From positions 1 to 60,296 of the IMG/VR virus record IMGVR_UViG_3300047160_011942: a stretch of DNA of 60,296 nucleotides; one strand, given 5' to 3'. Below, piece by piece: positions 192-45,290 of the stretch (positions are counted from its first letter, which is position 1; every line of letters starts with the position of its first letter). Both the position numbers and the translations under genes were made by a program. A model generated the notes under the pieces. The model did not search any database. It saw only the letters and a program-made list of their open reading frames with translations, and was not told the DNA's origin. This stretch comes from a virus.

Positions 192-608
192 TTGCTGCTC
201 GCGGTGAAGGTGGGCCATGCCACGCGCAGCCGCATGCAGGCCTTCCTGATCGAGATGGAGATGACGCCCTCGGGATGGCCGCCCGAGGGTCGCGAGGTGC
301 AGCTACTCGTGGAGAACCGCTGCAAGGAACTACGTAAAGCCGGCTATCTCACGCGCAGCGGTACCGATTCCGGTAGCCGCTGGCACCTGACACAGGAAGG
401 AATCGAGCGTGTCCGATCACACCCCCAGCGCCCATGCAAGGTTCGCACCCAGCGCGAGCAAGCGCTATCTCGCATGCAGCGGCTCCTTGACCCTCGAGCG
501 TGGGTTGCCCGACATACCCAACGAACACTCGGACGAAGGCACAGCCTGCCACGACGTGGCTGCCTGGTGCCTGAAGGAGCACCGCCGGGCGGCCGCTCGC
601 GTGGGTGA
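192..608 (+). CDS. Hypothetical protein, possible winged-helix DNA-binding protein; 3' end uncertain
   Basis: TTG-start ORF. The first ~75 aa look protein-like (ELRKAGYLTRSG...RWHLTQEG, wHTH-like). The last ~65 codons overlap the next gene and are Arg-rich junk-like sequence. Confidence 0.3.
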   Translation: MLLAVKVGHATRSRMQAFLIEMEMTPSGWPPEGREVQLLVENRCKELRKAGYLTRSGTDSGSRWHLTQEGIERVRSHPQRPCKVRTQREQALSRMQRLLDPRAWVARHTQRTLGRRHSLPRRGCLVPEGAPPGGRSRG

Positions 609-1035
609 CTACATCGTGGTCTCCCACGGCACCGAGGACGAGCGCAAGGTGCGCTTCGATGACGAGATGGCCGAGTGGGTGCAGGGCTACGTGGACTGCG
701 TGCGGTTCCTCGCCATCGGCCACGAGTACGCCGTCGAGCAGCGGTTGGAATTCAGTCAGTTCGTGGGCCTCGCCAACCAGTTCGGCACCACCGACTTCGC
801 GTTCTTCAACGACCGCGAGGGCGAGCTGAACGTGGTGGACGCGAAGTTCGGCCACGTGCCGGTGGATGTCAAGCGCAACCCGCAGCTCATGATCTACGCG
901 CTCGGCACGCTCGCGCAGATGTACGAGCAGGCGATGCTCGCGGCTGGCGAGCAGTTCGAGGACAGCTTCGACAAGTCGGTGCGCGAGGTGCTGACGCAGC
1001 AACAGGAGGGGAGCGACGATGACCTCGCCGATTGA
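409..1035 (+). CDS. PD-(D/E)XK nuclease, Cas4/RecB-like (DUF2800-type), N-terminal catalytic part
   Basis: GTG start with AGGAAGGA 8 nt upstream. Motifs: YLACSGS (N-terminal Cys), EGTACH, TTDFAFF (D), VVDAKFG (D-x-K), QLMIYALG (QxxxY). Ends in DDDLAD. Confidence 0.8.
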   Translation: MSDHTPSAHARFAPSASKRYLACSGSLTLERGLPDIPNEHSDEGTACHDVAAWCLKEHRRAAARVGDYIVVSHGTEDERKVRFDDEMAEWVQGYVDCVRFLAIGHEYAVEQRLEFSQFVGLANQFGTTDFAFFNDREGELNVVDAKFGHVPVDVKRNPQLMIYALGTLAQMYEQAMLAAGEQFEDSFDKSVREVLTQQQEGSDDDLAD

Positions 1036-1879
1036 TCCCGTCGACTACCAACGCCGCGTCTTCGATTGGGCGCGCGAGCGTGGCATCAAGACCGTGCGAC
1101 TGGCGATCTACCAGCCCAAGGTCACCGAGGGCCCGACCTTCGACGTGCTGCCGCTGCACGAACTGGAGACCTTCGCTCGCGATCTGCAGCTCGGCATCGA
1201 ACGGTGCTTGCGAGCGGACGCGGCACGCGACCAGATGCCCGAGGATGCCTGGAACCAGGAGTTCCTCGTGGCCGAGCCCACCGAGGACGTGTGCCGCTGG
1301 TGCAAGGCCTACCCGTCATGCCCGGCCGTGCAGACGAAGATCCAGCGGGCCATGGGCGTGGGCTTCGAAGCGGTGCTCGAGGAAGCCACGGCGTTGGCCG
1401 CCGAGAACTTGACCACCTTGCAAGTGTCCGAGGCGCTGCAGGTGGTACCGCTAATCGAGGGCTGGTGCAAGGCCGTGCGTGCCCGTATGGAATCGCACCT
1501 GCTTGCCGGCGGCGACGATGACACGTGGGGGTTGGAACTCGGGCGCAAGGGCAATCGTCAGTGGGCCGACCCCGAGGTGGCCGAGGACACGATCCGCAAC
1601 AAGTTCCGCATCCCGATCCAGTCGGCCTACACGATGAAGCTGAAGAGCCCGACGCAGATCGAGGAACTCACCAAGCCGGCCAAGGACGAGAAGGGCGTCG
1701 AGATGAAGCCCATCGTCGGCCCGCGGCAGTGGAAGCTGCTGCAGGCCAACATCGTGCGCAAGGACGGCGTGCCCTCCGTCAAGCGCAAGAACGTGATCAA
1801 GGATCCCTACGTCGTTATCAAGCCGGACACCGAGGGCCTGACCCCGGTCGAGGCCGAGGACGACGATCTCGCTGACTGA
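1019..1879 (+). CDS. DUF2800-type nuclease, C-terminal part carrying the CX2CX5C cysteine cluster
   Basis: ATG lies inside the tail codons of the upstream ORF (+1 frame). Has VRLAIYQPK and CRWCKAYPSC as in the C-terminal half of Cas4-like DUF2800 proteins. Ends in DDDLAD. Confidence 0.75.
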   Translation: MTSPIDPVDYQRRVFDWARERGIKTVRLAIYQPKVTEGPTFDVLPLHELETFARDLQLGIERCLRADAARDQMPEDAWNQEFLVAEPTEDVCRWCKAYPSCPAVQTKIQRAMGVGFEAVLEEATALAAENLTTLQVSEALQVVPLIEGWCKAVRARMESHLLAGGDDDTWGLELGRKGNRQWADPEVAEDTIRNKFRIPIQSAYTMKLKSPTQIEELTKPAKDEKGVEMKPIVGPRQWKLLQANIVRKDGVPSVKRKNVIKDPYVVIKPDTEGLTPVEAEDDDLAD

Positions 1880-1911
1880 TTCCCTCAACCCCCTCCACCA
1901 AGGAGCATTCC

Positions 1912-2319
1912 ATGAACCCCGACATCCAATCCGCTGTCGACGCTCGCGCGGCCGAGACCGGCGCCTCGCGCGTCACCGCCGCCGACATCGACGCGGAGAT
2001 CGCGAGCGTGAATTTCTTCACGGCTGCGCAAGGTGAGTTCGGTGCCCGCATGTATGAGGACGGCACCACACCGATGCCCAAACCCTCGACGCTCGACCTG
2101 CTCACGCTCTGCGTGCTGGTGCTCAAGAACGGCTTCACGGTCGTGGGCAAGTCGGCCTGCGCCGACCCGCGCATGTTCGATGCGGAGATCGGCCGCAAGG
2201 TCGCGCTCAATGACGCCAAGGGCCAGTGCTGGGCGCTGCTCGGCTTCCGGCTGCGCGACGCGATCGAGAATGCGGAGAAGACCGGGCAACCGGTGATCTT
2301 CAAGCGGCCGGCCTTCTGA
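1912..2319 (+). CDS. N4 Gp49 / Sf6 gp66-like phage protein
   Basis: GKSACADPRMFDAEIGRKVALNDA core typical of the Gp49 family. GGAG SD upstream. Confidence 0.65.
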   Translation: MNPDIQSAVDARAAETGASRVTAADIDAEIASVNFFTAAQGEFGARMYEDGTTPMPKPSTLDLLTLCVLVLKNGFTVVGKSACADPRMFDAEIGRKVALNDAKGQCWALLGFRLRDAIENAEKTGQPVIFKRPAF

Positions 2320-2352
2320 TTTCCCGTTCCCCTCAACCACCAGGAGCCCAAC

Positions 2353-3000
2353 ATGGCCAAGCGTGAAATCATCCTGCCGCTCGCGCGGCTCTCCTATCCC
2401 GTCTTCGGCGCTCCCGAAGAGTTCAAGGCGGGCGACGGCAAGTTCCGTTGGGGCTGCAGCCTGTGGGTGCCCAAGTCCAACGACATCGGGCCGGCGGACA
2501 TCCTGAAGCAAGGCATCAAGAACACCGACACCCTCGCGCTCGTCGACAAGACGATCAGGGCGGTCGCGGCGGAAGCGTGGCCGAAGGACCACGCCAAGAT
2601 CCTGCCCGAGGTGCTGCTGGACAGGAAAGGCTGCTGCTGGATCGACGGCACTCGTCGCAACGAAGCCGAGGCCGAGGGCTACTGGACGCTGAGCGCCTAC
2701 CGCTACAAGAAGGACGGGCGTCCGAAGATCGTGGACTCCGACCTGTCGCCGCTCTACGACGACAAGAACGAGATCATGCCTGGCAAGGGTGGCCGCATGT
2801 ACGCCGGTTGCTGGGTGCGCGCGAAGGTCGAGATCTGGACGCAGGACAACAAGGGCGGCAACGGGTACGGCATTCGCGGCGGCCTGCTGACCGTGCAGTA
2901 CCTGCGCAAGGGCGACGCGTTCGGCGGCGCGGGTGCGGTGTCCACCGACGGCTTCGGCGCGGTCGAGGACGGCGCGGACGCGGACGACATCGCGGATTGA
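2353..3000 (+). CDS. DUF2815-type ssDNA-binding protein
   Basis: N-terminal ...LARLSYPVFGAPE... signature. Positioned between the DUF2800 nuclease and PolA as in the known DUF2800-DUF2815-PolA module. Acidic tail DADDIAD. Confidence 0.7.
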   Translation: MAKREIILPLARLSYPVFGAPEEFKAGDGKFRWGCSLWVPKSNDIGPADILKQGIKNTDTLALVDKTIRAVAAEAWPKDHAKILPEVLLDRKGCCWIDGTRRNEAEAEGYWTLSAYRYKKDGRPKIVDSDLSPLYDDKNEIMPGKGGRMYAGCWVRAKVEIWTQDNKGGNGYGIRGGLLTVQYLRKGDAFGGAGAVSTDGFGAVEDGADADDIAD

Positions 3001-3002
3001 TC

Positions 3003-3425
3003 ATGCCTCGCGAGATCTGGCGTCCGGTTGTCGGACACGAGGGGGCTTACGAAGTGAGCAACCTCGGCCGCGTCCGGTCGCTGGATCGATGGATCTGGAA
3101 GGAGGGTCCGGTTCGTGCTTACTGGGTGTTCGTTCACGGCAAGATACTGAAGCCGGGTCGATGCCCATCTGGTCACATGACAGTCGGCATCGGCAAGCGC
3201 AACACCCAGAGCGTGCATGTGCTTGTGATGCTGGCGTTCAGAGGGCCGCCCCCACCCGGGCATGAGGTACTTCACCTGAACCACACCCCCGGAGACAACC
3301 GCTTGTCGAATCTGAAATACGGAACGACCAGCGAAAACCTCAAGATGGATTACGTGGCAGGCACCCGGAAGGGTTGGAAGAACATTAGCCGGTGGAAGAA
3401 CCGCGATGCCAAACCTGTGGTTTGA
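3003..3425 (+). CDS. HNH homing endonuclease (NUMOD4 + HNH_3 type)
   Basis: WRPVVGHEGAYEVSNLGRVRS (NUMOD4-like) and VLHLNHTPGDNRLSNLKYGTTSEN (HNH_3-like). Inserted between the SSB and polymerase genes. Confidence 0.8.
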   Translation: MPREIWRPVVGHEGAYEVSNLGRVRSLDRWIWKEGPVRAYWVFVHGKILKPGRCPSGHMTVGIGKRNTQSVHVLVMLAFRGPPPPGHEVLHLNHTPGDNRLSNLKYGTTSENLKMDYVAGTRKGWKNISRWKNRDAKPVV

Positions 3426-5634
3426 TTTGGAGACGAGATCCCCCGTCCCGATCAAGGACGGGGTGCATCGCTACGCTGAACAGGCCGAGATCCTGCTGTG
3501 GGCGTATGCGATCGACGAGGGCGAGCCGGTGGTGTGGGACATCACATCAGGTGATCCCGCGCCCGACGACCTGGTGGCCGCGCTCCGCGATCCGGAGATG
3601 CTGGTCTGGGGTCAAAACGCCGGCATGTTCGACTTCGTGGTGCTGCACCACGCCGCACCCTGGTTCGAGAAGCTCGTGCCCATGATCCGCTGGCGCGACA
3701 CGATGGTGCAGGCCTACGCGCACTCGCTGCCCGGGTCGCTCGAGAAGCTGGGCGCGATCTTCGACATGGACGCCGCCGACCAGAAGCTGGTCGACGAGGG
3801 CCGCAAGTACATTCGTCTGTTCTGCATCCCGCACACGATCGATGCGGACGGCACGCCGCACTACCACGACAAGCAATCACACCCCGTCGAGTGGGCCGGC
3901 TTCATCCGCTACGCGGCGCGCGACATCAAGACCATGCGGGTGGCGCACCACAAGGCGCCGATGTGGAACTACCGCGGCAAGCAAGTCGAGCTGTGGCACG
4001 AGAACCTGCGGATGAACTACCGCGGCTTCGCGGTCGACGTGGAGCTGGCCGAGGCCGCCATCGCCGCGGCGGAGGCCGAGAAGGCGCGGCTGGCCAAGCG
4101 CACCAAGGCGGTCACGATGGGCTGGGTGGACTCCGCCACCCAGCGCGACGAGCTGCTGCGCTACATCTGCGCGGCCTACGGCGTCGAGCTGCCTGACATG
4201 CAGGCCGACACGCTCGAGCGGCGCATGGACGATCCCGATCTGCCGGCTGAGGTCAAGGAGCTGCTGGGCCTGCGCCTGCGCGCGTCGATGAACTCGCCGA
4301 CCAAGTACAAGACGGGCCTGAAGGGCATGAGCCGAGATGGCCGGCTGCGCGGCTGCGAGCAGTTCCGTGGCGCGCTGCGCACCGGGCGCTCTGGCCACCG
4401 TCTGTTTCAACCGGGCAACCTGCCGCGGCCCGCCTACAAGTGGGCGCACCTGCAGGAACTGGTGGCTGCGGTGAAGGCCGGCTGCCTGGAGTGGGTGTCC
4501 GACCACGTGATGCAGGCCTGCGCGTCGATGATCCGCTGCATGCTGATTGCGGGGCCGGGCAAGAAGCTGGTCGTGGCCGACCTCTCGAATATCGAGGGCC
4601 GCATGGCTGCGTGGCTAGCCGGCGAGGACTGGAAACTGCAGGCTTTCCGCGCTTACGATGCCGGCGAGGGTCACGACCTGTACGTGATCAGCTACTGCCG
4701 TTCGTTCGGTGTGTCACTCGATGGCGTGCCGTTCAAGGACGGCAAGGAGTTTATCGGCTTCGATAACCGGCAGATCGGCAAGGTCGAAGAGTTGATGTTC
4801 CAGTACGGCGGCGGCGTGGGCGCCTGGATCACTGGAGCTGCGACCTACGGGATCGATCTCGATGCCATGCATGCGGCGGTACGCGACACGCTGCCCGAGT
4901 GGGCGATCGATGAGGCGCGGGACTTCCTGCACTGGCTCGACGAGTGCGCAGTTGCCGAACGTGACGAGGCACTCAAGAAGTGGGCAGCGAAAAACGGCAG
5001 CGCCACGACCGCCGAGTTCCACGACAAAGTGGCGGAACTGGATGCGGCGGTCATCAAGAAGCAGGCCAAGCAGCGGTTCGGATTGAAGGATGAGGTGTGG
5101 GTCACGTGTGACGCGATCAAGCGCCTCTGGCGCCGCGCCCATCCGGCCATCGTCAGTTACTGGCGCGAGCTGGAAGACACGATCAAGGAGGCGATCGAGA
5201 ACCCGGGCCAGCCCTACAAGGCGCGCAAGGTGGTGATCCAGCGCGACGGTACATGGTTGCGCATCAAGCTGCCCTCGGGTCGGTACCTCTGCTACCCGAA
5301 TATCCGACTGAAGAACGGCAAGATCACTTACGTCGGGCCCGACACGTATTCGAAAAAATGGGGCGATGTCAACACATACGGGGGGAAGGTATTCGAGAAC
5401 ATCGTGCAGGCGGCCTCCAACGATCAGTTCATGGAACCGCTGCCGACAATCGTTGCCGCGGGTTACCTTCCCGAAATCGGGTTGCACGATGAGTGGGTCA
5501 CGGAAACACCTGACACCGAGGACTTCACAGCGAAGCGGTTAAGCGCCATGATGACGATGGATCTCGGTTGGAACGCCGGGCTCCCGCTAGCCGCTGATGG
5601 CTGGGAAGATCAAGCCTTCCACAAGGCTGACTAG
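3406..5634 (+). CDS. Family A DNA polymerase with 3'-5' exonuclease domain
   Basis: FDLETRS (Exo I), VVADLSNIEGR (motif A region), RQIGKVEELMFQYGGG (motif B), GLHDEWVTE (motif C). 742 aa uninterrupted. Confidence 0.95.
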   Translation: MPNLWFDLETRSPVPIKDGVHRYAEQAEILLWAYAIDEGEPVVWDITSGDPAPDDLVAALRDPEMLVWGQNAGMFDFVVLHHAAPWFEKLVPMIRWRDTMVQAYAHSLPGSLEKLGAIFDMDAADQKLVDEGRKYIRLFCIPHTIDADGTPHYHDKQSHPVEWAGFIRYAARDIKTMRVAHHKAPMWNYRGKQVELWHENLRMNYRGFAVDVELAEAAIAAAEAEKARLAKRTKAVTMGWVDSATQRDELLRYICAAYGVELPDMQADTLERRMDDPDLPAEVKELLGLRLRASMNSPTKYKTGLKGMSRDGRLRGCEQFRGALRTGRSGHRLFQPGNLPRPAYKWAHLQELVAAVKAGCLEWVSDHVMQACASMIRCMLIAGPGKKLVVADLSNIEGRMAAWLAGEDWKLQAFRAYDAGEGHDLYVISYCRSFGVSLDGVPFKDGKEFIGFDNRQIGKVEELMFQYGGGVGAWITGAATYGIDLDAMHAAVRDTLPEWAIDEARDFLHWLDECAVAERDEALKKWAAKNGSATTAEFHDKVAELDAAVIKKQAKQRFGLKDEVWVTCDAIKRLWRRAHPAIVSYWRELEDTIKEAIENPGQPYKARKVVIQRDGTWLRIKLPSGRYLCYPNIRLKNGKITYVGPDTYSKKWGDVNTYGGKVFENIVQAASNDQFMEPLPTIVAAGYLPEIGLHDEWVTETPDTEDFTAKRLSAMMTMDLGWNAGLPLAADGWEDQAFHKAD

Positions 5635-5876: not shown

Positions 5877-6213
5877 ACGCGCCAACCGCCGCTCACCGAT
5901 CGGTGAGCGCGAACAGTCCGTCGAGGACTACCTGGACGAGCAGGTGCGGCTGGCTGGCGGCGAGACGCGCAAGCTCTCGTGGCTCGGCCGGCGCAACGCC
6001 AACGACCGCCTCGTGTTGCTGCCCACCACGGCGCGCCACCCGGTCGTCGAGGTGAAGAAGCGCGGGCTCGCGGCCACCTTCCCGCGGCCCGGCGATGCCC
6101 ACGAGCAGGCCCAGTGGCGCGAGCATTGCCGCTTGCGCGCTGCCGGCTTCGAGGTATGGGTCATCGACTCCAAGCAAGGTGTGCATGACGTGATCGAAGG
6201 GAAGATGCCATGA
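5869..6213 (+). CDS. VRR-NUC domain nuclease
   Basis: NDRLVLLP...VVEVKKRG...QAQW pattern (D...ExK) typical of VRR-NUC. Start overlaps the upstream stop. Confidence 0.8.
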   Translation: MPERANRRSPIGEREQSVEDYLDEQVRLAGGETRKLSWLGRRNANDRLVLLPTTARHPVVEVKKRGLAATFPRPGDAHEQAQWREHCRLRAAGFEVWVIDSKQGVHDVIEGKMP

Positions 6214-7568
6214 ATGCCAACACAACCCAGCCTGACGCAGCTTCGGGGGATGCGGGTCAGCTGGCGGCGCTCGAAGCGGATTACGTGGACGAGCGCGGCG
6301 AACTGAGACCCAATCGTCGGAAACACCCTCGGCGGCCAGACCGCGCTGCAGAGGAACTGTTCAACGGCTTCGCGAACCTCATCGCGAACATCGGTGTCAA
6401 TGATCGCTATTGGCACGCCTATCTCTGCGCCATGCGTCAGTCGTTCGCAGACTATGCCAGAGCCGCCACCCCGCAGGCACCGAAGCCCGACACCCCACCC
6501 CCGACGCCGGCAGAGGGGGCGCGCAAGCCGCCGATTCCTGCGACGTGGTTCCACGGCGAAGGCGCCTACGCTCAGTGCTACTACTGCCATCGGTACTCGC
6601 TCGACCCGCAGACGCTAGGCGATCGGCCACCAGCGTGCGAATGCGGCGAGAAGCTCGGATGGTCGGGGTCGTTCAAGCCCCCAGGCCCCGATGCGAAGTG
6701 GAGCGACGCCTCCCCTCCAGTCGCTGCACCGCAGGCGCAAGCCGTGGCGTGGCCGAGCGGCCTATGGCGGCGTGTGCGTGAGGCGGCCAACCGGATTTCA
6801 GGCAATTACTCTCCGCGCCGTATCCCCGCGGAGCCAGGGGATGTCGATCTTGTGTTGGCAGAGATCCAATTGCTCCTGGAAGGGCGCGAACCACCATCTT
6901 GTCTTGACAAGCTGCCGCGAGAGCCTCTCGGCGTCTTCGCATCCTCCCCTGCGCAGCCCGAGCAGTGCCCCGACCCCGAAGGGTGCCTGCGCGAAGGCTG
7001 CAATCGCACGCTGGACGGTGCGCCATGCCATCGGCATCCGGACGGGGCGGCGCCGCAGCCCGAGCCTGCGCGAGTGCCGCTGACGATAGACGCCAATCAC
7101 TCGCCGATTGCATCGACGCTGCTCGCGCCAAGGAGAGCGGCCATGACTGAAGGCGGGAAGCTGCCGGAGCCGGAGTTCTCCGCGCTGATGGATCACATCT
7201 ATGAGTACGGCACGATGTCCGAAGGCATCGTCTTCCGAGCGCGCTGTCTCATCGAGGCCGCACATCCTGCCCTCGCCTCGCGCATCCGCGAGCTCGAATC
7301 CGCCGCCCACGACCACCGCCTGGAGGTCGACGCCCTGCGCCTGGAGCGCGATACCGCGACGGGCAGGGTGAGTGAGCTGGAGGCGGAGCGCGATGCGCTG
7401 CGAGCGGCGCTTCGTCGGCACATCGAAGAATTCGCATATCTGTGCGGCGAAAGACAGCGATACAGCCGCGACGACCTCATGCGTTGGGGCGCCTTCCACG
7501 AACAGGCATTGGCCCTCCTGCCCCCCACCCCTACGGCCGGCGAGCCGCAAGGAAAGGATCAAGGTTGA
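6210..7568 (+). CDS. Hypothetical protein (Pro-rich, Cys clusters, C-terminal coiled coil)
   Basis: ATGA overlap with the VRR-NUC stop. CYYCH...CECGEK zinc-ribbon-like motif. C-terminal heptad-like ELESAAHDHRLEVDALRLERD. Confidence 0.55.
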   Translation: MNANTTQPDAASGDAGQLAALEADYVDERGELRPNRRKHPRRPDRAAEELFNGFANLIANIGVNDRYWHAYLCAMRQSFADYARAATPQAPKPDTPPPTPAEGARKPPIPATWFHGEGAYAQCYYCHRYSLDPQTLGDRPPACECGEKLGWSGSFKPPGPDAKWSDASPPVAAPQAQAVAWPSGLWRRVREAANRISGNYSPRRIPAEPGDVDLVLAEIQLLLEGREPPSCLDKLPREPLGVFASSPAQPEQCPDPEGCLREGCNRTLDGAPCHRHPDGAAPQPEPARVPLTIDANHSPIASTLLAPRRAAMTEGGKLPEPEFSALMDHIYEYGTMSEGIVFRARCLIEAAHPALASRIRELESAAHDHRLEVDALRLERDTATGRVSELEAERDALRAALRRHIEEFAYLCGERQRYSRDDLMRWGAFHEQALALLPPTPTAGEPQGKDQG

Positions 7569-8974
7569 CCGTCTGGCACCCACGCGAGTACCAAAGCCTC
7601 ATGGTCAAGCACGGGTTCAACAACCCGCGCTGCGCCAAGTGGGCGGGCATGGGCATGGGCAAGACGAGCGAGACCTTGTGGTTCTTGGACACCCTGAAGG
7701 AGGCCGGTGAGGACCCGTTCCCGGCGCTCGTGACGGGGCCGCTGCGCGTGGCGCGCGACGTGTGGCCCGATGAGGCCAGGAAGTGGGAGAACTTTCAGCA
7801 CCTGCGCGTGCAACCGATCATCGGAGACCTCGTGGAGCGCAAGGCCGCGCTCCGAAACGACAAGGCGCACCTCTACACCGTGAACTACGAGGTGCTGCCA
7901 TGGCTCATCCATCACCTGCACGGCGCGTGGCCCTTCAAGACGGTGATCAACGACGAGGCCACGCGGCTGAAGAACCTGCGCATCCAAGGCGGCGGGGCGC
8001 GGGCGGCCGCACTCTCGCAGATCGCCTTCCACCCTGCGATCCGTCGCTGGATCGAACTCACCGGCGCACCCGCGCCCAACGGGCTCATCGACCTCTGGGG
8101 CCAGATCTGGTATCTCGATCAAGGCCAGCGGCTCGGCCGCACGTTCACCGACTTCCAGAACCGATGGTTCGGCTACCAGCGGGCCAAGGACGCGCTCAAC
8201 GCCAACCGCACGTTCGTCAAGCGCGTCGTGTTCCCGCATGCGCAAGCCGAGATCGAGGCGCTGCTGAAGGATATCTGCTTGACGGTCGATCCGGCCGACT
8301 GGTTTGATCTCGAGCAGCCCATCCACAAGACGGTCACCGTGAAGCTGCCCAAGATCGCGCGCTTCCACTACCGTGAGATGGAGAAGGAACTCTTCACGCA
8401 GATCAAAAACAAGGACGTGGAGGCATTCTCCACGGGTGGCAAGTCGATCAAGCTGCTGCAGATGGCTTCAGGATTTTCCTTCACGAAGCCCGACGCCAGC
8501 GAGTGGGAAGACCTGCACGACGAGAAGACCGAGGCCCTGAAGTCGATCATCGAGGAAGCGGGCGGCGCGCCGATCATCGTGGCCTACCATTTCCGGCCCA
8601 CGCTGTACAAGCTGCTGAAGGCGATCAAGGGCTCCGTCGACCTGAACACGCAGGCGGGGATGAAGGCGTTCAAGCTGGGCCAAGCCCAGGTCGGCATCGG
8701 TCACCCGCAGTCGATCGGGCACGGCACCGATGGCTTGCAGTACGTCTGCAACATCGTGGTGTTCTTCACGAGCTGGTGGGATCTCGATCCGGATCAGCAG
8801 TTCATTGATCGCGTGGGGCCGACCCGGCAGGCGCAGGCCGGCTTCAAGCGACCGACGTGGGTCTATCGGATCGTCGCGGAGAAGTCCGTCGACGAGGATG
8901 TCGTTGAACGCCTGACGAGCAAGCGCTCGGTGCAGGATGTACTACTTGAGGCGATGAAGCGCCGCGGAGGTTGA
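7565..8974 (+). CDS. SNF2/SWI2-family ATPase (helicase-like)
   Basis: TTG start after AAGGA, overlapping the upstream stop. GMGMGKTS (motif I), INDEATRLKN (DEAx motif II), C-terminal GPTRQAQAGFKRP (motif VI-like). Confidence 0.85.
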   Translation: MTVWHPREYQSLMVKHGFNNPRCAKWAGMGMGKTSETLWFLDTLKEAGEDPFPALVTGPLRVARDVWPDEARKWENFQHLRVQPIIGDLVERKAALRNDKAHLYTVNYEVLPWLIHHLHGAWPFKTVINDEATRLKNLRIQGGGARAAALSQIAFHPAIRRWIELTGAPAPNGLIDLWGQIWYLDQGQRLGRTFTDFQNRWFGYQRAKDALNANRTFVKRVVFPHAQAEIEALLKDICLTVDPADWFDLEQPIHKTVTVKLPKIARFHYREMEKELFTQIKNKDVEAFSTGGKSIKLLQMASGFSFTKPDASEWEDLHDEKTEALKSIIEEAGGAPIIVAYHFRPTLYKLLKAIKGSVDLNTQAGMKAFKLGQAQVGIGHPQSIGHGTDGLQYVCNIVVFFTSWWDLDPDQQFIDRVGPTRQAQAGFKRPTWVYRIVAEKSVDEDVVERLTSKRSVQDVLLEAMKRRGG

Positions 8975-8975
8975 T

Positions 8976-9278
8976 ATGCCGACTATGGGAACCGCCCCTC
9001 AGACCACTGACGTCGACACCGTGCTCGCGGAGCGCCGCTCGCGGTATGGGCCTTTCGTCGGGCATGCCAAGGTGACGCAGGATCTCAAACACACCATCGC
9101 TTGCGAACTCGAAGCCCGCGGCAAGATCATCTCCGATGACCAGCAAGAAGCTTTGGACATGATCTGTCACAAGATCGGGCGCATCGTGAACGGCGATCCG
9201 AATTACGCGGACTCGTGGATCGATATCGCAGGCTACGCCAAGCTGGTGTCCGACCGCCTGGAAGGGAAGACGCGATGA
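8976..9278 (+). CDS. Conserved phage protein (DUF6378-like)
   Basis: ICHKIGRIVNGDPNYADSWIDIAGYA motif recalled from a phage DUF family. The assignment is from memory only. Confidence 0.5.
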   Translation: MPTMGTAPQTTDVDTVLAERRSRYGPFVGHAKVTQDLKHTIACELEARGKIISDDQQEALDMICHKIGRIVNGDPNYADSWIDIAGYAKLVSDRLEGKTR

Positions 9279-9775
9279 TCGACTGGCTGATCCGCCGCGC
9301 GAAGCGCACGCCCTACTACCACCTCGATGGCTACATGAACCGTTGGTGGCTGGTGCCCTACAACGTGGTGATCACGCGCCGGGGCTGCGATAGCGCCGAC
9401 GGCACAGGGCCTGTCTCGTTCTGGCGCCGACCGCTCGCGTGGGTCTTCCAGCGATTCGACATCGCGATCCGCATCCACGAGCTGCTGCGTGCAGATCGTG
9501 GACGCCACCCGCACAATCATCCCTGGCCCTACTGGTCGGTCGTGCTGAAGGGCGGCTATCTGGAAGAGGTCTATGACGCGCAGGGCGCGCTCATCGGCAC
9601 GGTGTGGCATGGGCCGGGATCGGTGTTCCGTCGGCCAGCGGATTCCTGGCACAAGATCGTCGACGTCGATCCGGGGACGACCACGCTGTTCATCACCGGC
9701 AAGAAGGCCCAGACCTGGGGGTTCAACGTGGACGGCGTTGTCGTGCCGTACTACGAATACGCCGGCGAGCCTTGA
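9275..9775 (+). CDS. Cupin-like metal-binding protein (HxHxHPW family)
   Basis: ATGA overlap with the upstream gene. GRHPHNHPWPYWSVVLKGGY plus PADSWHKI resemble the two cupin His motifs. Confidence 0.55.
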   Translation: MIDWLIRRAKRTPYYHLDGYMNRWWLVPYNVVITRRGCDSADGTGPVSFWRRPLAWVFQRFDIAIRIHELLRADRGRHPHNHPWPYWSVVLKGGYLEEVYDAQGALIGTVWHGPGSVFRRPADSWHKIVDVDPGTTTLFITGKKAQTWGFNVDGVVVPYYEYAGEP

Positions 9776-9799
9776 CACCCAAGCCCTGATGCGTATCAT
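9772..9799 (+). promoter_or_regulatory. Sigma70-like promoter candidate (TTGACA-N16-TATCAT)
   Basis: TTGACA at 9772-9777 and TATCAT at 9794-9799. Sits at the start of a 530-nt poorly coding spacer preceding the transferase island. Confidence 0.45.
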
Positions 9800-9986
9800 C
9801 TGATACACACCCCTAGGAGACTGCCATGCTCCCGCTGCCTGCCTCGATGCGCTTGCCCGATGACTTGCCGAACCACGCCGGTCTTGGGCGGCCGAACCGC
9901 CTGCTGCCCCCACCCCGCGTGGTGACGGTCGGCGATTAGGACTGCTACGAAACGGATCCGGTCGGCAAGATCGATCAGTTCACGGT

Positions 9987-10049
9987 CCGCGGCCCGGTGA
10001 TCCGTGGCCCCGGTTCAACGCCACGATCGACGGTATCACCGGGCCGCGG
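9987..10049. repeat. Perfect 15-bp inverted repeat (ccgcggcccggtgat / atcaccgggccgcgg), 33-nt spacer with an inner 5-bp stem
   Basis: Read directly: arms at 9987-10001 and 10035-10049. Ends one nt before the TTG of ORF 10050. Confidence 0.7.
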
Positions 10050-10308
10050 TTGCCGCGTGACCTGACCTTGGAAGACATCGAACGCCATCTGCTGGTCGCG
10101 AAGGGCTTCCGTCGCAGCGTGCTGCGGCACGAGATGAAGGTGCGCGTGGCGCGTGTCACGGTATCCACCTCAACCGTCTTTCACGAGTCTATCGCGATCT
10201 CAAGCTTGACCGACCATCAGCTGCATGCCGCGTATCAGTGCGAAACACGAGACGACACGTTGCGCCGGCTGCTGCACAACGAACGCTTCTACCGCCAGGA
10301 GCTGAGAC

Positions 10309-10959
10309 GTGAACTCAACAAGCAAGCTACCGGACTGGCGCAACAAGACCGTGCTGATCGCAGCCTCGGGGCCGTCTCTTCCCTCACTGCTGCCCCGCGA
10401 ACCGCTCCCTTCCAATACCAGGATAGTCGCGATCAATGCGAGTTTCAGGCTGCTGCCCAACGCGAACTTGATCTTCATGGCGGATCATCGGGCGGTGCAG
10501 TGCTATCACAGCGAATGTTTGAAAAGCTGTCCCGGGAGTGCGCGATGGACAGCAACGCCGCTGATCGCGGAGCAGCTGCAATGGAATTTGCTGAGGACAA
10601 TGCATGGCGTCGGTCTATCGAAGGCTGACTTCGCGTACGCCAACGGCAACTCGGGATTCGAGGCCATCAATCTGGCCTACCTGACCGGCGCTCGCCGCGT
10701 GCTGCTCGTGGGCTTCGACATGAAGCCGGGCCCGAGCGGCGAGCGTCACTGGCACGACGACCACCCAGCGCCGCTGCTGCAGTTCCAGCCGTTCGACGAC
10801 TGGATCCGCAACGCGGTCAAGCTTGCCGCCGAGTGCACGACGGCGGGCTTGGAAGTGATCAACTGCACCCCCGGCAGCGCGCTGACCGCGTTCGCGATGG
10901 GCGACTTGAAGGAGGAACTGGAACGTGCTTGCGATCCTGAAAGAGAAGCTGATACCTAG
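10309..10959 (+). CDS. DUF115 / GT42-like (Maf- or sialyltransferase-like) Rossmann transferase
   Basis: GTG start with AGGAG 8 nt upstream. N-terminal KTVLIAASGPSL as in GNGPSL-type CMP-sugar transferases and DUF115. NGNSGFEAINLAYLTGARRVLLVGFD. Confidence 0.6.
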   Translation: MNSTSKLPDWRNKTVLIAASGPSLPSLLPREPLPSNTRIVAINASFRLLPNANLIFMADHRAVQCYHSECLKSCPGSARWTATPLIAEQLQWNLLRTMHGVGLSKADFAYANGNSGFEAINLAYLTGARRVLLVGFDMKPGPSGERHWHDDHPAPLLQFQPFDDWIRNAVKLAAECTTAGLEVINCTPGSALTAFAMGDLKEELERACDPEREADT

Positions 10960-11173
10960 CGGTCAGCGGACGATTGACGCCGTTGAACTGTGGGAGGTTC
11001 GATGGTTGTCGACATGCAACATCAGTAGTGGCGGTTTCGCTTACACGAAGGAGCATGTGGAAGCCTTCCCCACAGAGCAGGCCGCGAATGATTTCAGGCA
11101 GGCGCTGTATGCGGCCTACGCTTTGCTGAAGTCGCCTTCGGATAGAGTGAGCATGCAGAAGGTCACGCCTTAA
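10925..11173 (+). CDS. Hypothetical small protein (lower-GC segment)
   Basis: GTG-start ORF overlapping the upstream 3' end. No recognisable motif. Confidence 0.4.
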   Translation: MLAILKEKLIPSGQRTIDAVELWEVRWLSTCNISSGGFAYTKEHVEAFPTEQAANDFRQALYAAYALLKSPSDRVSMQKVTP

Positions 11174-11174
11174 A

Positions 11175-12023
11175 ATGCCCCGCGCCCTGATCCTCATTCG
11201 CGCTGAGCCTATGTACCGTAGGTCTGCATTCGTCGCAGGCCTCGAGCGGCTGGGCTACAAGATCGAGCCCTACAAGACGCCGCTCACGGGCCCGCAGATG
11301 CCGCGCATGACGCCGGAGTCGACGGACGACGTTCTCGTTCTCTGGAACCTGAAGCGCGGCTACGATGAGGCCGCGGCACGCCGGTTCGAACTGGAAGGCG
11401 GCACGGTGCTGGTGGTCGAGAACGGCTACCTCCAGAAGACGGACAAGTCCTACTACGCGATCAGCACGCACGCGCACAATGGTGCTGGCTGGTACCCCGT
11501 CGATGCGTCGATCGATCGCTTCGGCCCTCTGGGCTTCCAGCAAAAGCCCTGGCTCATGGGTCGCGAGCACATCCTGATCTGCGCCCAGCGTGGTGTGGGC
11601 TCGGCCGAGATGGCCTCGCCGCTCGATCACCACGTGCGTGCCAAGACCTCGCTTGATCGGATCTTCGGCGGCCAGCGGGAAGTGCGCATGCGCATGCACC
11701 CCGGCAATTTCGTACCGCAGGTGCCACTCGAGGCGGATCTGGCGCGGGCGTGGGCTTGCGTGGGATGGTCGACCGCCTCGGGTGTTCGCGCGCTCGTGGA
11801 GGGCGTGCCGGTCTTTCAGGATTCGCCACATTGGATCTGCGCCGACGTGGCGCGACGCGTGGCCACCCTCAAGCGCGACACTCCGATGCCGGGCTTCTCG
11901 TTCGAGAAGGTCAGCGAATCGCTGAATAGAATGAGCTGGGGGCAGTGGAAGACGGAAGAGATCGAGGCCGGAACTCCTTTCGACCTGATGCGTTCACAAG
12001 GATGGGGGCCGAGGTGGCTTTGA
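11175..12023 (+). CDS. Glycosyltransferase-like, capsule-synthesis (KpsS/KpsC)-type GT-B C-terminal fold
   Basis: VRMRMHPGN ... ACVGWSTASGVRALVEGVPVF resembles the HP... and S-t-x-G-x-EA-x-x-G-x-PV signature. Paralogous to 12196-12930. Confidence 0.6.
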   Translation: MPRALILIRAEPMYRRSAFVAGLERLGYKIEPYKTPLTGPQMPRMTPESTDDVLVLWNLKRGYDEAAARRFELEGGTVLVVENGYLQKTDKSYYAISTHAHNGAGWYPVDASIDRFGPLGFQQKPWLMGREHILICAQRGVGSAEMASPLDHHVRAKTSLDRIFGGQREVRMRMHPGNFVPQVPLEADLARAWACVGWSTASGVRALVEGVPVFQDSPHWICADVARRVATLKRDTPMPGFSFEKVSESLNRMSWGQWKTEEIEAGTPFDLMRSQGWGPRWL

Positions 12024-18112: not shown

Positions 18113-18190
18113 CTGGGTGTAATGTCAGCCCGGTAGACGGCCGCGCTTGGAACGCGGAGGCCGCAGGTTCGAATCCTGCCACCCAGACCA
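18113..18190 (+). tRNA. tRNA-Pro (anticodon UGG), CCA encoded
   Basis: Acceptor ctgggtg/cacccag. Anticodon arm ccgcg-cTTGGaa-cgcgg (TGG at 18148-18150). T arm gcagg-ttcgaat-cctgc. By hand the D arm needs a 3-nt connector. Confidence 0.7.
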
Positions 18191-18219
18191 GTTCACGATC
18201 ACGATATTGACGCCTCACC

Positions 18220-18303
18220 GGGGCGTTATACCGCTATGGACACGGGCCGGGCTGTAACCCCGGCGCTTCGGCAGTCTAGGTTCGATTCCTAGGCGCCCCA
18301 CCA
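18220..18303 (+). tRNA. tRNA-Tyr (anticodon GUA), long variable arm, CCA encoded
   Basis: Acceptor ggggcgt/gcgcccc. Anticodon arm ccggg-ctGTAac-cccgg. Variable arm cgcttcggcagt. T arm ctagg-ttcgatt-cctag. Confidence 0.7.
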
Positions 18304-18310
18304 GTTCAAC

Positions 18311-18396
18311 GGATCGTGCCGAGCAGGGCTCAAAACTGTTTCGAAAGCAGCGGCGGTCAGAGATGGCCGATGGTTCGATTCCTTCACGATCCGCCA
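18311..18396 (+). tRNA. tRNA-Ser (anticodon CGA), long variable arm, CCA encoded
   Basis: Acceptor ggatcgt/acgatcc. Anticodon loop ttCGAaa on a 4-bp stem. 17-nt variable region. T arm gatgg-ttcgatt-ccttc with one mismatch. Confidence 0.6.
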
Positions 18397-18402
18397 ATCA
18401 CC

Positions 18403-18493
18403 GGGCTTGTGGCCGAGGGGCCGAAGGCAACGGGTTGCTAACCCGTAGGGTCGTTTCGCGGCCCCGCACGTTCGAATCGTGTCAAGCCCGCCA
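18403..18493 (+). tRNA. tRNA-Ser (anticodon GCU), long variable arm, CCA encoded
   Basis: Acceptor gggcttg/caagccc. D arm gcc...ggc. Anticodon arm acggg-ttGCTaa-cccgt. Long variable arm. T arm gcacg-ttcgaat-cgtgt. Confidence 0.75.
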
Positions 18494-34020: not shown

Positions 34021-34461
34021 TCAGTCCGCGAGATCGCTGCTCGTGGAAGCCGTCGCGGCCTCTTCCGCCTTCGCGTTGGCCGTGGCGATGACCATCTTGC
34101 GCATCGTCTTCGGGTCGAGCTTCGGATCGAGCGCGAGGCCCAGCTCGTTGAACGCGAAGGTCGTCAGTTCTTCCTTGGTCATCGTGCCGACGTCGACCTC
34201 GGGCTTCTCGTCTTCGACCGAGCTGTCGACGATGCGCCGCACCGCCGACACCGACTTGATGTAGGCCTGCCGCTCGGCGAGCGTCGCGGTGGGCTTGCCG
34301 CGGTACGGCCGCCAGTCGGCCAGCGCCGCCGTGTTCTTGACGTTCGGGATCAGCCGCGCGTCGTAGATGTTGATCAGGAACGGCACCTTCGAGTCCTGCT
34401 TCATCTCCTTTTGCTTCGCGGACAGGACGCTTTCCTGATCGCCGCTGATGACGTGGGCCAT
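34021..34461 (-). CDS. Hypothetical head-module protein ending in acidic tail SDLAD
   Basis: ATG 34461 with AAGGAAG SD. 146 aa. C-terminus ...EEAATASTSSDLAD. Confidence 0.6.
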   Translation of the reverse strand: MAHVISGDQESVLSAKQKEMKQDSKVPFLINIYDARLIPNVKNTAALADWRPYRGKPTATLAERQAYIKSVSAVRRIVDSSVEDEKPEVDVGTMTKEELTTFAFNELGLALDPKLDPKTMRKMVIATANAKAEEAATASTSSDLAD

Positions 34462-42304: not shown

Positions 42305-44857
42305 TCAGCCTTTCGACCAGATGATGCGGCGCTGTTGCTGCGGCCGCACACGCGCGACCGTCACCTTCCTGTCGATGAGGTCGGGGATGAAGGACAGCGC
42401 GAGCGAGTCCGCGCGGTCGGGCGACTTCACGCCGCGCTTCTTGGCGTCCTTCTTGGTTTCGAGTTGGATGCGGAGCTTCCCGTCATAGCCGTACTGCAAG
42501 CTCGTGCACTGGTCGGACAGGTCGTCGTCATCAGGCACCTGCGCAGTCTCGAGCCAGTCGCGCATGCGCCCCCAAGCCTCGGAGCGCTGGTTGAAATACT
42601 GCTTGTCGTCCTTGGCGGGGTTGCCCCACGTGACCGGGATCAGCGGCATGGGCAGGTTGGCCCGCCGGAGCATGGCGTCCAGGTCGGCGCCGTTACCCAC
42701 GGCGTCGTAGGCGATGCACGAAATGGGCGAGTCGCCGATAGGTAGCGAGTTGTCCTTGACCTTGCCCGCGCGCCGCACGATCTCGAGCACCCGGCCGGCG
42801 ACGTCGGGCCCGTCGAAGCCGGCCATGGCGACCTGCCACCATAGCCGCGCACCCTGGCGCAGGGAGATGACCGTGAAATCGTCGCCGAAGCGCGCCGGGT
42901 CGATCGAGAGCACCTTCTGGTAGATGCGCACGCGCTCGAACTCGATGCGACGCTTGCGGGCTTCGACGAGCAGCCCAGGGGCGATAAAGTTGTCGTAGCC
43001 CGAGCGCGGGAACATGCCCTTGACGCGCACGCGCACGAAGTCGGAGTCCTCCCCGTACTCGTCGATCCAGGCCTGGATCTGCCGCTTGTTGGTGAACGAG
43101 ACGCGGCGGCTGTCCACGCGGCTGACGTGGTGTGCCTCGCCGGCCTTGGGGGTGCGGTTGCACTGCTTGAAGAACTCGCCCGAGGTGCGCGTGGGGTTGC
43201 CGTAGCGCATCCACAGGATCTGCGTCTTCGCGTCGGTCAGCGCGCCGCGCGTGACCGTCCAAATGTTGTCGTGGATGTTCGAAGCCTCGTCGAACACGAC
43301 CACGATGCGCTTGCCCTGGTTGTGCATGCCGGCGAAGGCCTCGGTCTTCTCGGCCGACCACGGCACCTGGTCGATCCGCCACTGCTTGGCGCGGTCGGCG
43401 TCGTTGGCGATGTACAGGCTCGTGGCAGTGAGCGTGAAGAGGTGGCGCGCGATGAACATGCCATGCCACTTCGCCAGCTCGGCCCAGGTCTTCGTGCGCA
43501 GCTGGAGGTCCGTGTTCGCGGTCACGACGCCGCGCGTGTCGGGGAAGGTGGAGATCGCCCAGAGCAGGAACATGCCCACCTGACCGGAGTTGTGCGTGAC
43601 GATGAAGTCGTTGGCCTGGTACAGGCCGTCCTCGGCCTCCACCGAGATGCACATGCCGTGCGCTGCAGGCGCGATCGGCTCGATCGAGTCGATCCATCGA
43701 GTCAGGTAACGCGACTCACTGGGCTTGTAGGCATCACGTCGATGCGCGATCGTGAAGGGGTTGAAAGGCGCATTGATCGTCACGCGCCAGCAGCCCTTGC
43801 ACGGGACGCGCTCGCCGTTCTTGACGTACCACGCGCACTTGACGGTGGGCTGCATCATGGCTTTGCAGCCCAAGCTGCGCGCCAGCCAGATCACATCCTC
43901 GGCCAGTTGCTTGCTGGTCGTCGAGTAACCGATGGAGCCTGAACTGTTCACCTCACCATCGGCGTCCATCAGCCCGTCGAACAGCGCGCGGCGGTTCCCG
44001 ACGGTGTTGAACTTGTACTCGTCGGGGATATAGCGCTCGCTGCTATAGCACTCGAAGACACCGCCCGTGAAGATGTGCAGCGCACCCCGCAGGTACTGCT
44101 GCATCCCGTCAGCGCAGGTCGTGACTCCGTAGCCACACGCCTCGACACGCGCTTTCACTTCCGCGTGCGGTTTCGTGTAGGCAGGCCGTGCCCGACTCCC
44201 GTCGCCTAGCCACACACCCATCACGTAGGGGTGCAGCGCCGTGGGCTGCTTGACGAACTTCGCGGGACCTTGTTGCGGGATCTCCCATTGACGTGCCTGT
44301 GCCACACCGTTGGCGCGCTTCACGCCGCGGCGCAGGATGTCGATCGTCTCAAGCGTGCGCCACGTGTCGAGTTTCTTGCGGCGCTCCTGGCGGCCGCGCA
44401 CGTTCCACAGATGGCCTGAGCTGACATCGCACGTGCTGCCGTCGTCGAACGTGACGCGGTACATCGGCACGTTCGTGAAGTGGTGCGTTTGCACGACTCG
44501 CGTCACATGGCCGTCGGCGTCGAACACCAGATCCCCGAGTGTGAGATCGCCGTGCCGACGCAGACCTTCAGGCGTGGGCACGAGGGTGTCGTCCGCGAGC
44601 AGCTTGCCAATGCCGTGGCCAGAGGCGACGTCTTCCTCGATCACGCAGCCCTGCTCGCCACCTTGCTGGATCTCCAGCGACACGCGACGCTGCTGGTCGG
44701 CCTGCCATTCCTCAGGTCCGCTGAAATCCTCCAGCGGCGTGTCGGGCTCGCCCCATGGGAACGCCCAATGCGTCCAGCCGATCCAGTTGTCGTGGAACGA
44801 GGCGAGCTTGTCGAACAACTCGTCGATGGGCGTGCCGCGGATGAGGGAGTCCGTCAT
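42305..44857 (-). CDS. Terminase large subunit, interrupted by an intein (850 aa precursor, about 512 aa after splicing)
   Basis: Walker A VASGHGIGK/S is split by the insert. Walker B-like VVVFDEAS. C-terminal nuclease region. The Arg-rich upstream extension to 45181 was rejected as coding. Confidence 0.9.
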   Translation of the reverse strand: MTDSLIRGTPIDELFDKLASFHDNWIGWTHWAFPWGEPDTPLEDFSGPEEWQADQQRRVSLEIQQGGEQGCVIEEDVASGHGIGKLLADDTLVPTPEGLRRHGDLTLGDLVFDADGHVTRVVQTHHFTNVPMYRVTFDDGSTCDVSSGHLWNVRGRQERRKKLDTWRTLETIDILRRGVKRANGVAQARQWEIPQQGPAKFVKQPTALHPYVMGVWLGDGSRARPAYTKPHAEVKARVEACGYGVTTCADGMQQYLRGALHIFTGGVFECYSSERYIPDEYKFNTVGNRRALFDGLMDADGEVNSSGSIGYSTTSKQLAEDVIWLARSLGCKAMMQPTVKCAWYVKNGERVPCKGCWRVTINAPFNPFTIAHRRDAYKPSESRYLTRWIDSIEPIAPAAHGMCISVEAEDGLYQANDFIVTHNSGQVGMFLLWAISTFPDTRGVVTANTDLQLRTKTWAELAKWHGMFIARHLFTLTATSLYIANDADRAKQWRIDQVPWSAEKTEAFAGMHNQGKRIVVVFDEASNIHDNIWTVTRGALTDAKTQILWMRYGNPTRTSGEFFKQCNRTPKAGEAHHVSRVDSRRVSFTNKRQIQAWIDEYGEDSDFVRVRVKGMFPRSGYDNFIAPGLLVEARKRRIEFERVRIYQKVLSIDPARFGDDFTVISLRQGARLWWQVAMAGFDGPDVAGRVLEIVRRAGKVKDNSLPIGDSPISCIAYDAVGNGADLDAMLRRANLPMPLIPVTWGNPAKDDKQYFNQRSEAWGRMRDWLETAQVPDDDDLSDQCTSLQYGYDGKLRIQLETKKDAKKRGVKSPDRADSLALSFIPDLIDRKVTVARVRPQQQRRIIWSKG
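43589..44602 (-). mobile_element. Intein (338 aa) with LAGLIDADG homing endonuclease; class 3 (WCT) features
   Basis: Starts LLADDTLV directly after GHGIGK and ends VTHN followed by Ser. SSGHLW (block B with Trp), GMCISVE (block F Cys), THN (block G Thr). LAGLIDADG motifs VMGVWLGDGS and LFDGLMDADGEV. Confidence 0.85.
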
Positions 44858-44954
44858 GCGGTGAGCCGGGATCTCCAGCGGCGGCGTGCGGTAGGCGGGA
44901 AGCTGGCGCGCCAGATCGGCGACCGACGGGTTGAACCGCCGATCGCTGTTGCCA

Positions 44955-45290
44955 TCAGGCACTGGGCGCGACAGGCGGCGTGGCGACCGCCGCGGCCGCT
45001 GCCTGCGCCACGGACGTCGGGTCGACCGGCGGCGCAGCCGCGGGCGTGGCCGCCCCGAGCGGTGAAGCCGCCAGGGCCTTGACCGCGGCGGCCGCAGCAT
45101 CCTCGGGCGTGGCGGGCGCCGGCGCGTCGGGGTCGTGCCGAGGCTTCTGGGCCTGCTGCAGTTGCTGGTTGATCTCGGCAATCGCGGGCGCCGCGATCTT
45201 GTAGGGGGCTTCCTGCAACGCCATGTTGATGGCGTTCAGGCACTGCGGCGACAGATTCAGATTGAAGGTGCCGGGGATGGGTTGCTGCAC
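44955..45290 (-). CDS. Hypothetical protein (Ala/Pro-rich C-terminus)
   Basis: ORF between TerS and TerL. Protein-like N-terminal half. Confidence 0.4.
   Translation of the reverse strand: MQQPIPGTFNLNLSPQCLNAINMALQEAPYKIAAPAIAEINQQLQQAQKPRHDPDAPAPATPEDAAAAAVKALAASPLGAATPAAAPPVDPTSVAQAAAAAVATPPVAPSA

Follow-up and report, generated by a model that had tools for sequence, protein, structure and literature searches.

When a single short acidic peptide closes several different proteins of one phage, it needs to be asked whether this reflects chance, a signal in the DNA or a tag by which these proteins reach a common partner. Such a peptide, D-D-[LI]-A-D-COOH, occurs in IMG/VR virus record IMGVR_UViG_3300047160_011942, the 60,296 nucleotides of which (referred to here as the window) were the subject of an earlier sequence-only reading that described acidic endings of this kind on five open reading frames (ORFs) and took them for a possible common docking code. 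The carriers are the two halves of a DUF2800 nuclease, a gp2.5/Enc34-type protein that binds single-stranded DNA (SSB), the small terminase (TerS) and a 146-residue protein encoded after the capsid gene (Table 1). Our analysis shows that the sharing of this tail by five proteins is a real feature of the genome, far beyond chance, and comparison with relatives makes it moderately probable that the tail represents the form taken in this phage by a short linear motif for docking on a common putative reader.

One acidic ending on five proteins

In order to determine how often such an ending arises we scanned all 2,227 stop codons of the six reading frames. The tripeptide [LI]AD stands directly before the stop at five of them, in each case preceded by D, and all five D-[LI]-A-D tails belong to real genes, with none in non-coding frames and none at any of the remaining 2,222 stop contexts. 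From amino-acid composition 0.003-0.005 such tails would be expected among 65 proteins, giving a probability of about 1e-14 for five or more. Even if the nuclease is ignored and the SSB tail is used as the template, its recurrence on TerS and the head-region protein alone has a probability of about 5e-6 to 1e-5.

An origin by chance, by composition bias or through a DNA-level signal (a nucleotide motif common to the gene ends, be it terminator, ribosome-binding site or gene-conversion tract) that happens to encode DLAD has some footing in a genome of 65% G+C where Asp, Ala and Leu are common. The 2,222 empty stop contexts and the expectation of about 0.004 speak against this, however, and synonymous sites (GAC/GAT, GCC/GCT/GCG) and stop codons (TGA/TAG) differ between the tails, so that it is the peptide and therefore not a DNA signal that is conserved. 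Homologues elsewhere also keep the peptide class with different sequences. This explanation is effectively refuted, and selection acts on the tail peptide.

Each of the five tails follows a low-complexity linker and none has a Lys or Arg within its last 10 residues. Near-identical acidic tails stand on at least two replication proteins, namely both nuclease halves and the SSB. Measured against known C-terminal peptides, all five lack the Gln and the second hydrophobic residue of the beta-clamp motif Q-L-[SD]-L-F, and they finish in LAD or IAD rather than in the Pro-Phe of the bacterial SSB consensus. In place of the terminal aromatic anchor (Phe) of the T7 type they carry a Leu or Ile at position -3, and their final Asp also departs from the non-polar end of an ssrA-like degron (L-A-A-COOH).

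The sequence-only reading is borne out in that the five ORFs are all present with the endings it gave them, that the six-frame scan finds the tail on no other ORF, and that the empty non-coding frames remove the concern that the tail might be as frequent there. It had also held the five proteins to be otherwise unrelated, which fails for the ORFs at 409-1035 and 1019-1879 as these are halves of one DUF2800 nuclease, and its account of the two late tail genes needs correcting as both lie on the minus strand. The SSB does end in DADDIAD, encoded at 2977-2997, the interval of 2983-2997 given for it covering DDIAD only. The family A DNA polymerase likewise ends in ...HKAD as reported, yet this was rejected as a weaker copy of the tail since polymerases of this family have a conserved terminus of their own, to which it belongs, with 77 relatives ending RY[RK]K[DE] and one (L025) ending QKAD.

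The nuclease is a PD-(D/E)XK exonuclease, the DUF2800 domain of which is complete but distributed over two ORFs rather than contained in a single polypeptide. Its N-half covers Pfam DUF2800 (PF10926) profile positions 1-164 (E=5e-34), together with matches to PDDEXK_1 and to a PHROG exonuclease, and its C-half covers positions 170-343. Intact homologues read through the junction (...YALGAYAEL-EMAY continuing into DIRQVRIGIYQPK...), and they lack the C-terminal extension of about 35 residues with which the N-half finishes in DDDLAD. When homologues are aligned, the window and a relative of 56% polymerase identity (L001), whose nuclease is also split into two overlapping ORFs, have a common insertion of about 60 residues at the junction loop. 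Through this insertion the N-half gains a helix and an acidic tail followed by a stop codon, and the C-half a conserved extension at its N-terminus, and in both phages the new N-half C-terminus carries the tail (DDDLAD in the window, DDDDLAG in the relative). The C-half has its own ATG at 1019, inside the tail codons of the N-half, with AGGAGG 8 nucleotides upstream. Because the insertion is conserved at this distance, the split is an old and functional fission of the gene rather than a frameshift error, and a new copy of the tail was gained when the gene split. A tail on the new C-terminus is as expected if each polypeptide that reaches the reader needs its own tag, and it would mark the tag as modular and transferable.

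Tails of relatives and their co-variation

No near-identical DNA, and so no close phage relative, was found in the GenBank phage collection. The SSB matches PF10991 (E=2e-20) and has the modified oligonucleotide-binding (OB) fold, its AlphaFold model (mean predicted local distance difference test, pLDDT, of 92.9) being matched by Foldseek to 5odl (Enc34 ORF6, E=6e-12), 4klk and 1je5 (T7 gp2.5, E=9e-7). Residues 186-215 are modelled without secondary structure, and the last 10 residues include five acidic and no basic ones. A word-indexed protein search with the SSB as query returned only the SSB itself; an exhaustive HMMER search gave 150 cluster representatives, 147 of them usable, and 115 of these end in [DE]x0-1[LIMFV]x0-2, with 7.0 acidic against 0.4 basic residues on average over the final 20 positions. 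The commonest ending is Leu plus one residue, Leu plus two as in the window is rare, and 15 of the 147 end in F. An ending of the form [DE][DE]-hydrophobic-x(1-2)-COOH is a family trait of gp2.5/Enc34-type SSBs. Three representatives (P0110, P0121 and P0146) have the endings DDDIPF, DDDTPF or GEIPF of the bacterial SSB-Ct consensus, which suggests that some SSB lineages may have switched to the host SSB interaction network.

Among 80 related viral loci obtained with the polymerase as query, the nuclease and the SSB have a two-part motif in common, consisting of an F-box, D[DE]F[DE]x[VIL], and after six to eight residues a [DE]D-L-x end. In the window the SSB reads DGFGAVE...DDIAD and the C-half of the nuclease EGLTPVE...DDLAD.

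A further reading is intramolecular DNA mimicry, in which each tail would fold onto the DNA-binding surface of its own protein and gate binding, as has been shown for T7 gp2.5, with no shared reader needed. Nuclease, SSB, TerS and, among relatives, primase, which are all the carriers of known function, do bind DNA, SSB grooves are occupied by the tails of T7 gp2.5 and Enc34 (PMC12339929, PMC5686142), and pLDDT in the window SSB reaches 74-80 over the F-box, as though it were docked. The shared DDIAD end is less confident (58 over the last five residues), however, the F-box being the best-modelled part of the tail, and self-binding gives no reason for unrelated proteins to share their last residues or to change them jointly, which leaves mimicry very improbable as the explanation.

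Of 42 distinct loci, 15 have a nuclease and an SSB that agree in their last two residues, where 3.1 would be expected (permutation p<5e-5), a comparison that does not remove shared ancestry. This is offset by the matches falling in six ending classes (LV, LA, LI, LT, LD and AD), each of which needs its own concerted change. Nuclease and SSB end respectively in EDLV and DDLV (L004-L008), ADLT and DDLT (L036), DDLI and EALI (L021, L038), DSLD and DDLD (L001), DDPLLQ and NDPLLD (L022), ELLG and GDLG (L147) and, in the window, DDLAD and DDIAD, while both end in DDLA in L035. Other proteins carry such tails in some relatives, among them a clamp-like protein (L006, L018), a methylase-like protein (L051, L072) and a primase (L079, EDLI, with GLI on the SSB). 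A small Ala/Pro-rich protein encoded upstream of the nuclease bears its genome's tail in L001, L036, L016 and L035, the tail being missing from it in several other loci, and it appears to be an occasional carrier only. That homologues should keep the tail while the linkers before it vary had been put forward as a check, and the relatives show exactly that; the core idea of the sequence-only reading, a short acidic C-terminal peptide acting as a common docking code, is in this way strongly supported by comparative evidence.

The same endings could be read as turnover signals, with a host protease or unfoldase of the ClpXP/ClpAP type recognizing the ancestral ...D-L-[AV]-COOH, an extra Asp acting as a cap in the manner of ssrA-DD, and a concerted change of tails amounting to escape from or tuning of degradation. 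Relatives mostly have a hydrophobic or small residue after Leu (DLV, DLA, DLI), to which the window adds Asp, and C-terminal Asp residues keep ClpX from recognizing tags of the ssrA type. Capping is not general, however, as many window proteins keep hydrophobic ends (...RPAF, ...GTWGI, ...EDPWW, ...LSAA), conservation of the acidic stretch and of the upstream F-box goes well past what a degron requires, and a degron leaves the gain of a tail by the newly split nuclease half unexplained. We regard a turnover signal as quite improbable.

An -AD ending is absent among about 150 SSB, 53 nuclease, 32 TerS and 10 post-capsid-protein relatives, and because no relative in any of these families has it the window lineage changed all five tails together. 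Late loci were obtained with a TerL query, TerS having yielded no TerS-related loci in viral contigs and the portal protein no portal-related loci in viral and metagenome contigs; a walk along contig L086 toward the replication module reached no SSB. TerS itself is a Terminase_2 protein (PF03592, 77.8 bits against a cut-off of 26.1), and 34 homologues have acidic tails that mostly end in L-W or L-F, the closest (L083) ending DDDEDLAG. Some end EQLW or EQLF, in weak likeness to the beta-clamp motif. The E-x-L-W ending forms a second tail flavour, found on TerS, on the AEP primase (...EEDPWW in the window, ...EEPLW in L111) and on the nuclease of L152 (...VELW), and homologues of the AEP protein have tails that resemble those of TerS in their own genome (AEP EEEDLAS and TerS EDLAG in L083; DEEPLW and DDEQLF in L111). 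The 146-residue protein lies between the capsid gene and two SU10_adaptor genes of SU10 type, the position occupied by gp10 in SU10 (PMC9509320). It has no Pfam, PHROG or PDB match; its AlphaFold model, built from a two-sequence alignment, has a pLDDT of 59 and is confident only for a C-terminal helix-loop-helix. Ten homologues end in [ED]x[LVM]S or NLA.

Cultured phages provide independent instances. Bordetella phage BPP-1 (L005) ends its exonuclease Bbp38 in ...ETVEDLV, its SSB Bbp40 in ...AAAADLV, its small terminase Bbp26 in ...DDDPAAGLV, the 68-residue Bbp15, encoded two genes after the capsid gene, in ...KSGGDLV and Bbp45 in ...PAGGLV, so that five of its 49 coding sequences end in -LV (P=4e-5) and none does so in other frames. 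No similarity is detectable between the capsid and small terminase of BPP-1 and those of the window. In Caulobacter phage BL94 (L144), which belongs to the same genus as BPP-1, the SSB ends ...DDDDDQV, gp030 ...DEDDQV and the post-capsid gp043 ...ADDAQV. TerS and the 73-residue early gp011 of the same phage have a common 8-residue ending, DD[GD]FRDLV, BL94 holding in this way two tail classes, FRDLV (TerS, gp011) versus QV (SSB, gp030, gp043). The nuclease and primase of Burkholderia phage BcepC6B end ...DDGSDLA and ...FEGSDLA, with ...GDDLQ on its post-capsid gp10, and in Yersinia phage YeP4 the nuclease and SSB both end in AESLI. Four independent comparisons show the SSB ending again on a small post-capsid protein, with SSB and post-capsid protein ending IAD and LAD in the window, DLV and DLV in BPP-1, DQV and AQV in BL94, and DDLS and ETLS in L002/L101. 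The inclusion of TerS and a head-module protein in the set, as first proposed, accordingly has counterparts, the SSB-type ending recurring on both in BPP-1 and on the head-region protein in BL94.

Late carriers are also where separate partners with the same chemistry come into play. The SSB, nuclease and primase could dock on the polymerase, TerS on TerL and the post-capsid protein on capsid or portal, DLAD then being a convergence inside a generic motif of acidic residues and one leucine. The classical pocket for a TerS tail is TerL. The C-terminal tail of P22 TerS binds TerL and PaP3 TerS has an acidic tail (PMC7672466), and the family-typical endings of TerS (...[DE][DE]xLW/F) and the post-capsid protein (...[ED]x[LVM]S) are unlike the SSB type, as where TerS ends EQLW and the SSB DDLS in L002/L101. 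We nevertheless consider separate partners unlikely: -AD is absent from relatives of all families yet present on all five window proteins, a concerted cross-module shift is seen independently in BPP-1 (-LV) and BL94 (-QV), and by chance TerS and the post-capsid protein by themselves would both match with a probability of about 1e-5. Separate partners, turnover and self-inhibition each cover part of the observations, and a common reader explains the genome-specific, concerted endings better.

A putative common reader

As the last residues drift together within a genome, we infer one reader pocket per phage that would co-evolve with them. The motif sits at the end of a flexible, acidic, K/R-free linker, a setting expected of short linear motifs, and other proteins of the duf2800-gp2.5-polA module carry the SSB ending, presumably to meet the same reader. 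The DUF2800 nuclease is the most frequent co-carrier, with a primase, clamp-like or methylase-like protein added in some genomes and the small terminase and small post-capsid protein joining in the window and in BPP-1. By this route the tail would bring the nuclease halves, the SSB, TerS and the head-region protein to one site, from which replicated or recombining DNA could be passed to packaging.

By analogy with T7, the reader is likely to be a phage replisome protein, and the family A polymerase is the most likely candidate. In T7 a basic patch of gp5 binds the acidic tails of gp2.5 and gp4, and PDB 6P7E holds the gp4 peptide DTDF (PMC12339929). The second-choice candidate is the DNA-binding groove of the SSB itself: the acidic tail of Enc34 SSB lies in the DNA groove of a neighbouring molecule (PMC5686142) and that of T7 gp2.5 competes with single-stranded DNA for its own groove (PMC12339929; PMC5686142). 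An F-box docked on the SSB with the terminal box left free for reading in trans would fit the pLDDT pattern of the model. TerL and a host factor are further candidates.

Several observations weigh against a common reader, in addition to the shared ancestry that the permutation leaves in place. AlphaFold confidence over the SSB tail is moderate. In most TerS relatives the ending differs from that of the SSB encoded with them, as in L002/L101, and in phages of the E-x-L-W/F type TerS probably reads a different pocket. Nuclease and SSB endings do not match in Xfas53, in L152 and in some of the L044-L080 group, and in APSE-1 the two proteins have only the F-box in common, which limits the shared-tail pattern. 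The window copy of the small Ala/Pro-rich protein ends in ...EELVKA and not in DLAD. Finally, a GapR-like protein ending ...GLDL[IVL] was tried as a further co-varying carrier and rejected, as the full table shows this ending to be constant throughout the protein's family and not to co-vary.

Going beyond a docking motif, the tail may act as a genome-private, drifting address tag through which one reader gathers SSB, nuclease, primase, TerS and the capsid-proximal protein and couples replication and recombination to packaging, a possibility that we regard as tentative and rather doubtful. If true, code and reader would co-evolve and could isolate co-infecting relatives from one another. If there is one reader, a peptide of 5-7 residues would define the replication-packaging interaction network of a phage, and its tails would assign unannotated proteins to that network (the 146-residue protein, Bbp15, Bbp45, and gp030 and gp043 of BL94). 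The concerted drift of endings would document, as nature rarely does, how a short linear motif and its receptor evolve together. BPP-1 and BL94 represent tractable cultured test systems.

The genome that carries these genes appears in Table 1 together with features of the loci compared. Its first and last 97 nucleotides are identical, so that the record is a complete circular phage genome of 60,199 unique bases, and one gene crosses the circular junction. The SNF2-type helicase has, in the window and in relatives, a strongly conserved basic C-terminus (...VQD[IL]LLEAMK[RK][RK]...), its charge being the opposite of that of the acidic tails. Between SSB and polymerase lies a gene for a NUMOD4 + HNH_3 homing endonuclease, which begins directly after the SSB stop, and a second endonuclease gene is found in the late-early region. 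The TerL ORF encodes 958 residues, of which 393-469 match LAGLIDADG_3 and Hom_end; matches in 54 relatives span about 1.5-1.7 kb (about 500-580 residues), and the excess length is probably an intein or a homing-endonuclease insertion. Three tRNA genes separate the early and late blocks. The AEP protein and the D5-type helicase are encoded separately here and fused as a 915-residue protein in L152.

Table 1. Positions, strands and C-terminal endings of features in the window and, where named, in other loci
Feature	Position	Strand	C-terminal ending	Tail codons
DUF2800 nuclease, N-half	409-1035	+	...EGSDDDLAD	1015-1032 (DDDLAD)
DUF2800 nuclease, C-half	1019-1879	+	...AEDDDLAD (...EGLTPVEAEDDDLAD)	1859-1876
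gp2.5/Enc34-type SSB and annealing protein	2353-3000	+	...DADDIAD	2977-2997
146-residue post-capsid protein	34021-34461	-	...TASTSSDLAD	34024-34038
Small terminase (TerS)	46083-46823	-	...DDEDLAD (...HDQEPDDEDLAD)	46086-46106
Family A DNA polymerase (PHROG DNA polymerase)	3406-5634	+	...FHKAD	
AEP-type primase-like protein (Pfam AEP-TOTE)	55794-56384	-	...KQEEDPWW	
NUMOD4 + HNH_3 homing endonuclease	3003-3425	+		
SNF2-type helicase	7442-8974	+		
tRNA genes (Pro-TGG, Tyr-GTA, Ser-GCT)	18113-18493	+		
TerL	42305-45181	-		
D5-type helicase	50998-53415	-		
HNH / His-Me endonuclease	57273-57722	-		
Gene crossing the circular junction	about 59641 to 134			
Identical ends of the record	1-97, 60200-60296			
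L001, split DUF2800 nuclease (two overlapping ORFs)	5896-7628			
BL94, TerS	1644-2210		DD[GD]FRDLV	
BL94, gp011	8479-8700		DD[GD]FRDLV	
L152, AEP-D5 fusion protein	8480-11227			

Comparison with known systems

Among known systems the tails of T7 gp2.5 and gp4 come closest. The principle is alike in that several replisome proteins have an SSB-like acidic tail, near-identical on more than one of them, which implies one receptor; the SSB is of the same fold (1je5), and a primase is a carrier in BcepC6B and L079 as gp4 is in T7. In contrast to T7, where the terminal Phe is essential, the end here is Asp or a small residue, and the aromatic residue stands 10-15 residues upstream in the separate F-box, making a two-part motif. 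The main second carrier here is the DUF2800 nuclease, the small terminase and a head-region protein are carriers as well, and the ending differs from lineage to lineage but changes jointly within a genome. For T7 the receptor is known; here it is putative. If there is one reader, the T7 tail principle would be extended to recombination nucleases and terminase.

Bacterial SSB, with its tip D-D-D-I-P-F, likewise uses an acidic run and a hydrophobic anchor at the extreme C-terminus as a docking peptide, and a few DUF2815 SSB relatives end in DDDIPF or DDDTPF (P0110, P0121). The logic is reversed, however, with one tail and many readers there as opposed to many carriers here, the Pro-Phe end is absent from the window tails, and the window protein belongs to PF10991 and not to the bacterial tetrameric SSBs. 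With Enc34 ORF6/DUF2815 the likeness is one of membership, the window SSB agreeing in Pfam family, fold and acidic tail, the last of which has been described for Enc34 SSB (PMC5686142). The genes for nuclease, SSB and polymerase stand in the order known from the duf2800-gp2.5-polA module (PMC8093625), from which the window differs in having its nuclease split into two proteins. TerS of P22 and PaP3 resembles that of the window in having a flexible C-terminal tail on a Terminase_2-type protein, acidic as in PaP3 (PMC7672466), but the window TerS and the replication proteins encoded with it have identical endings, where TerS relatives mostly have E-x-L-W/F.

In the literature searched the SSB tail and the module are described, and no nuclease-shared tail, F-box or within-genome co-variation was found. 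What is known, then, is the SSB family, the module and the shared-tail principle of T7, and what differs here is a variable ending that co-varies within genomes, together with new carriers.

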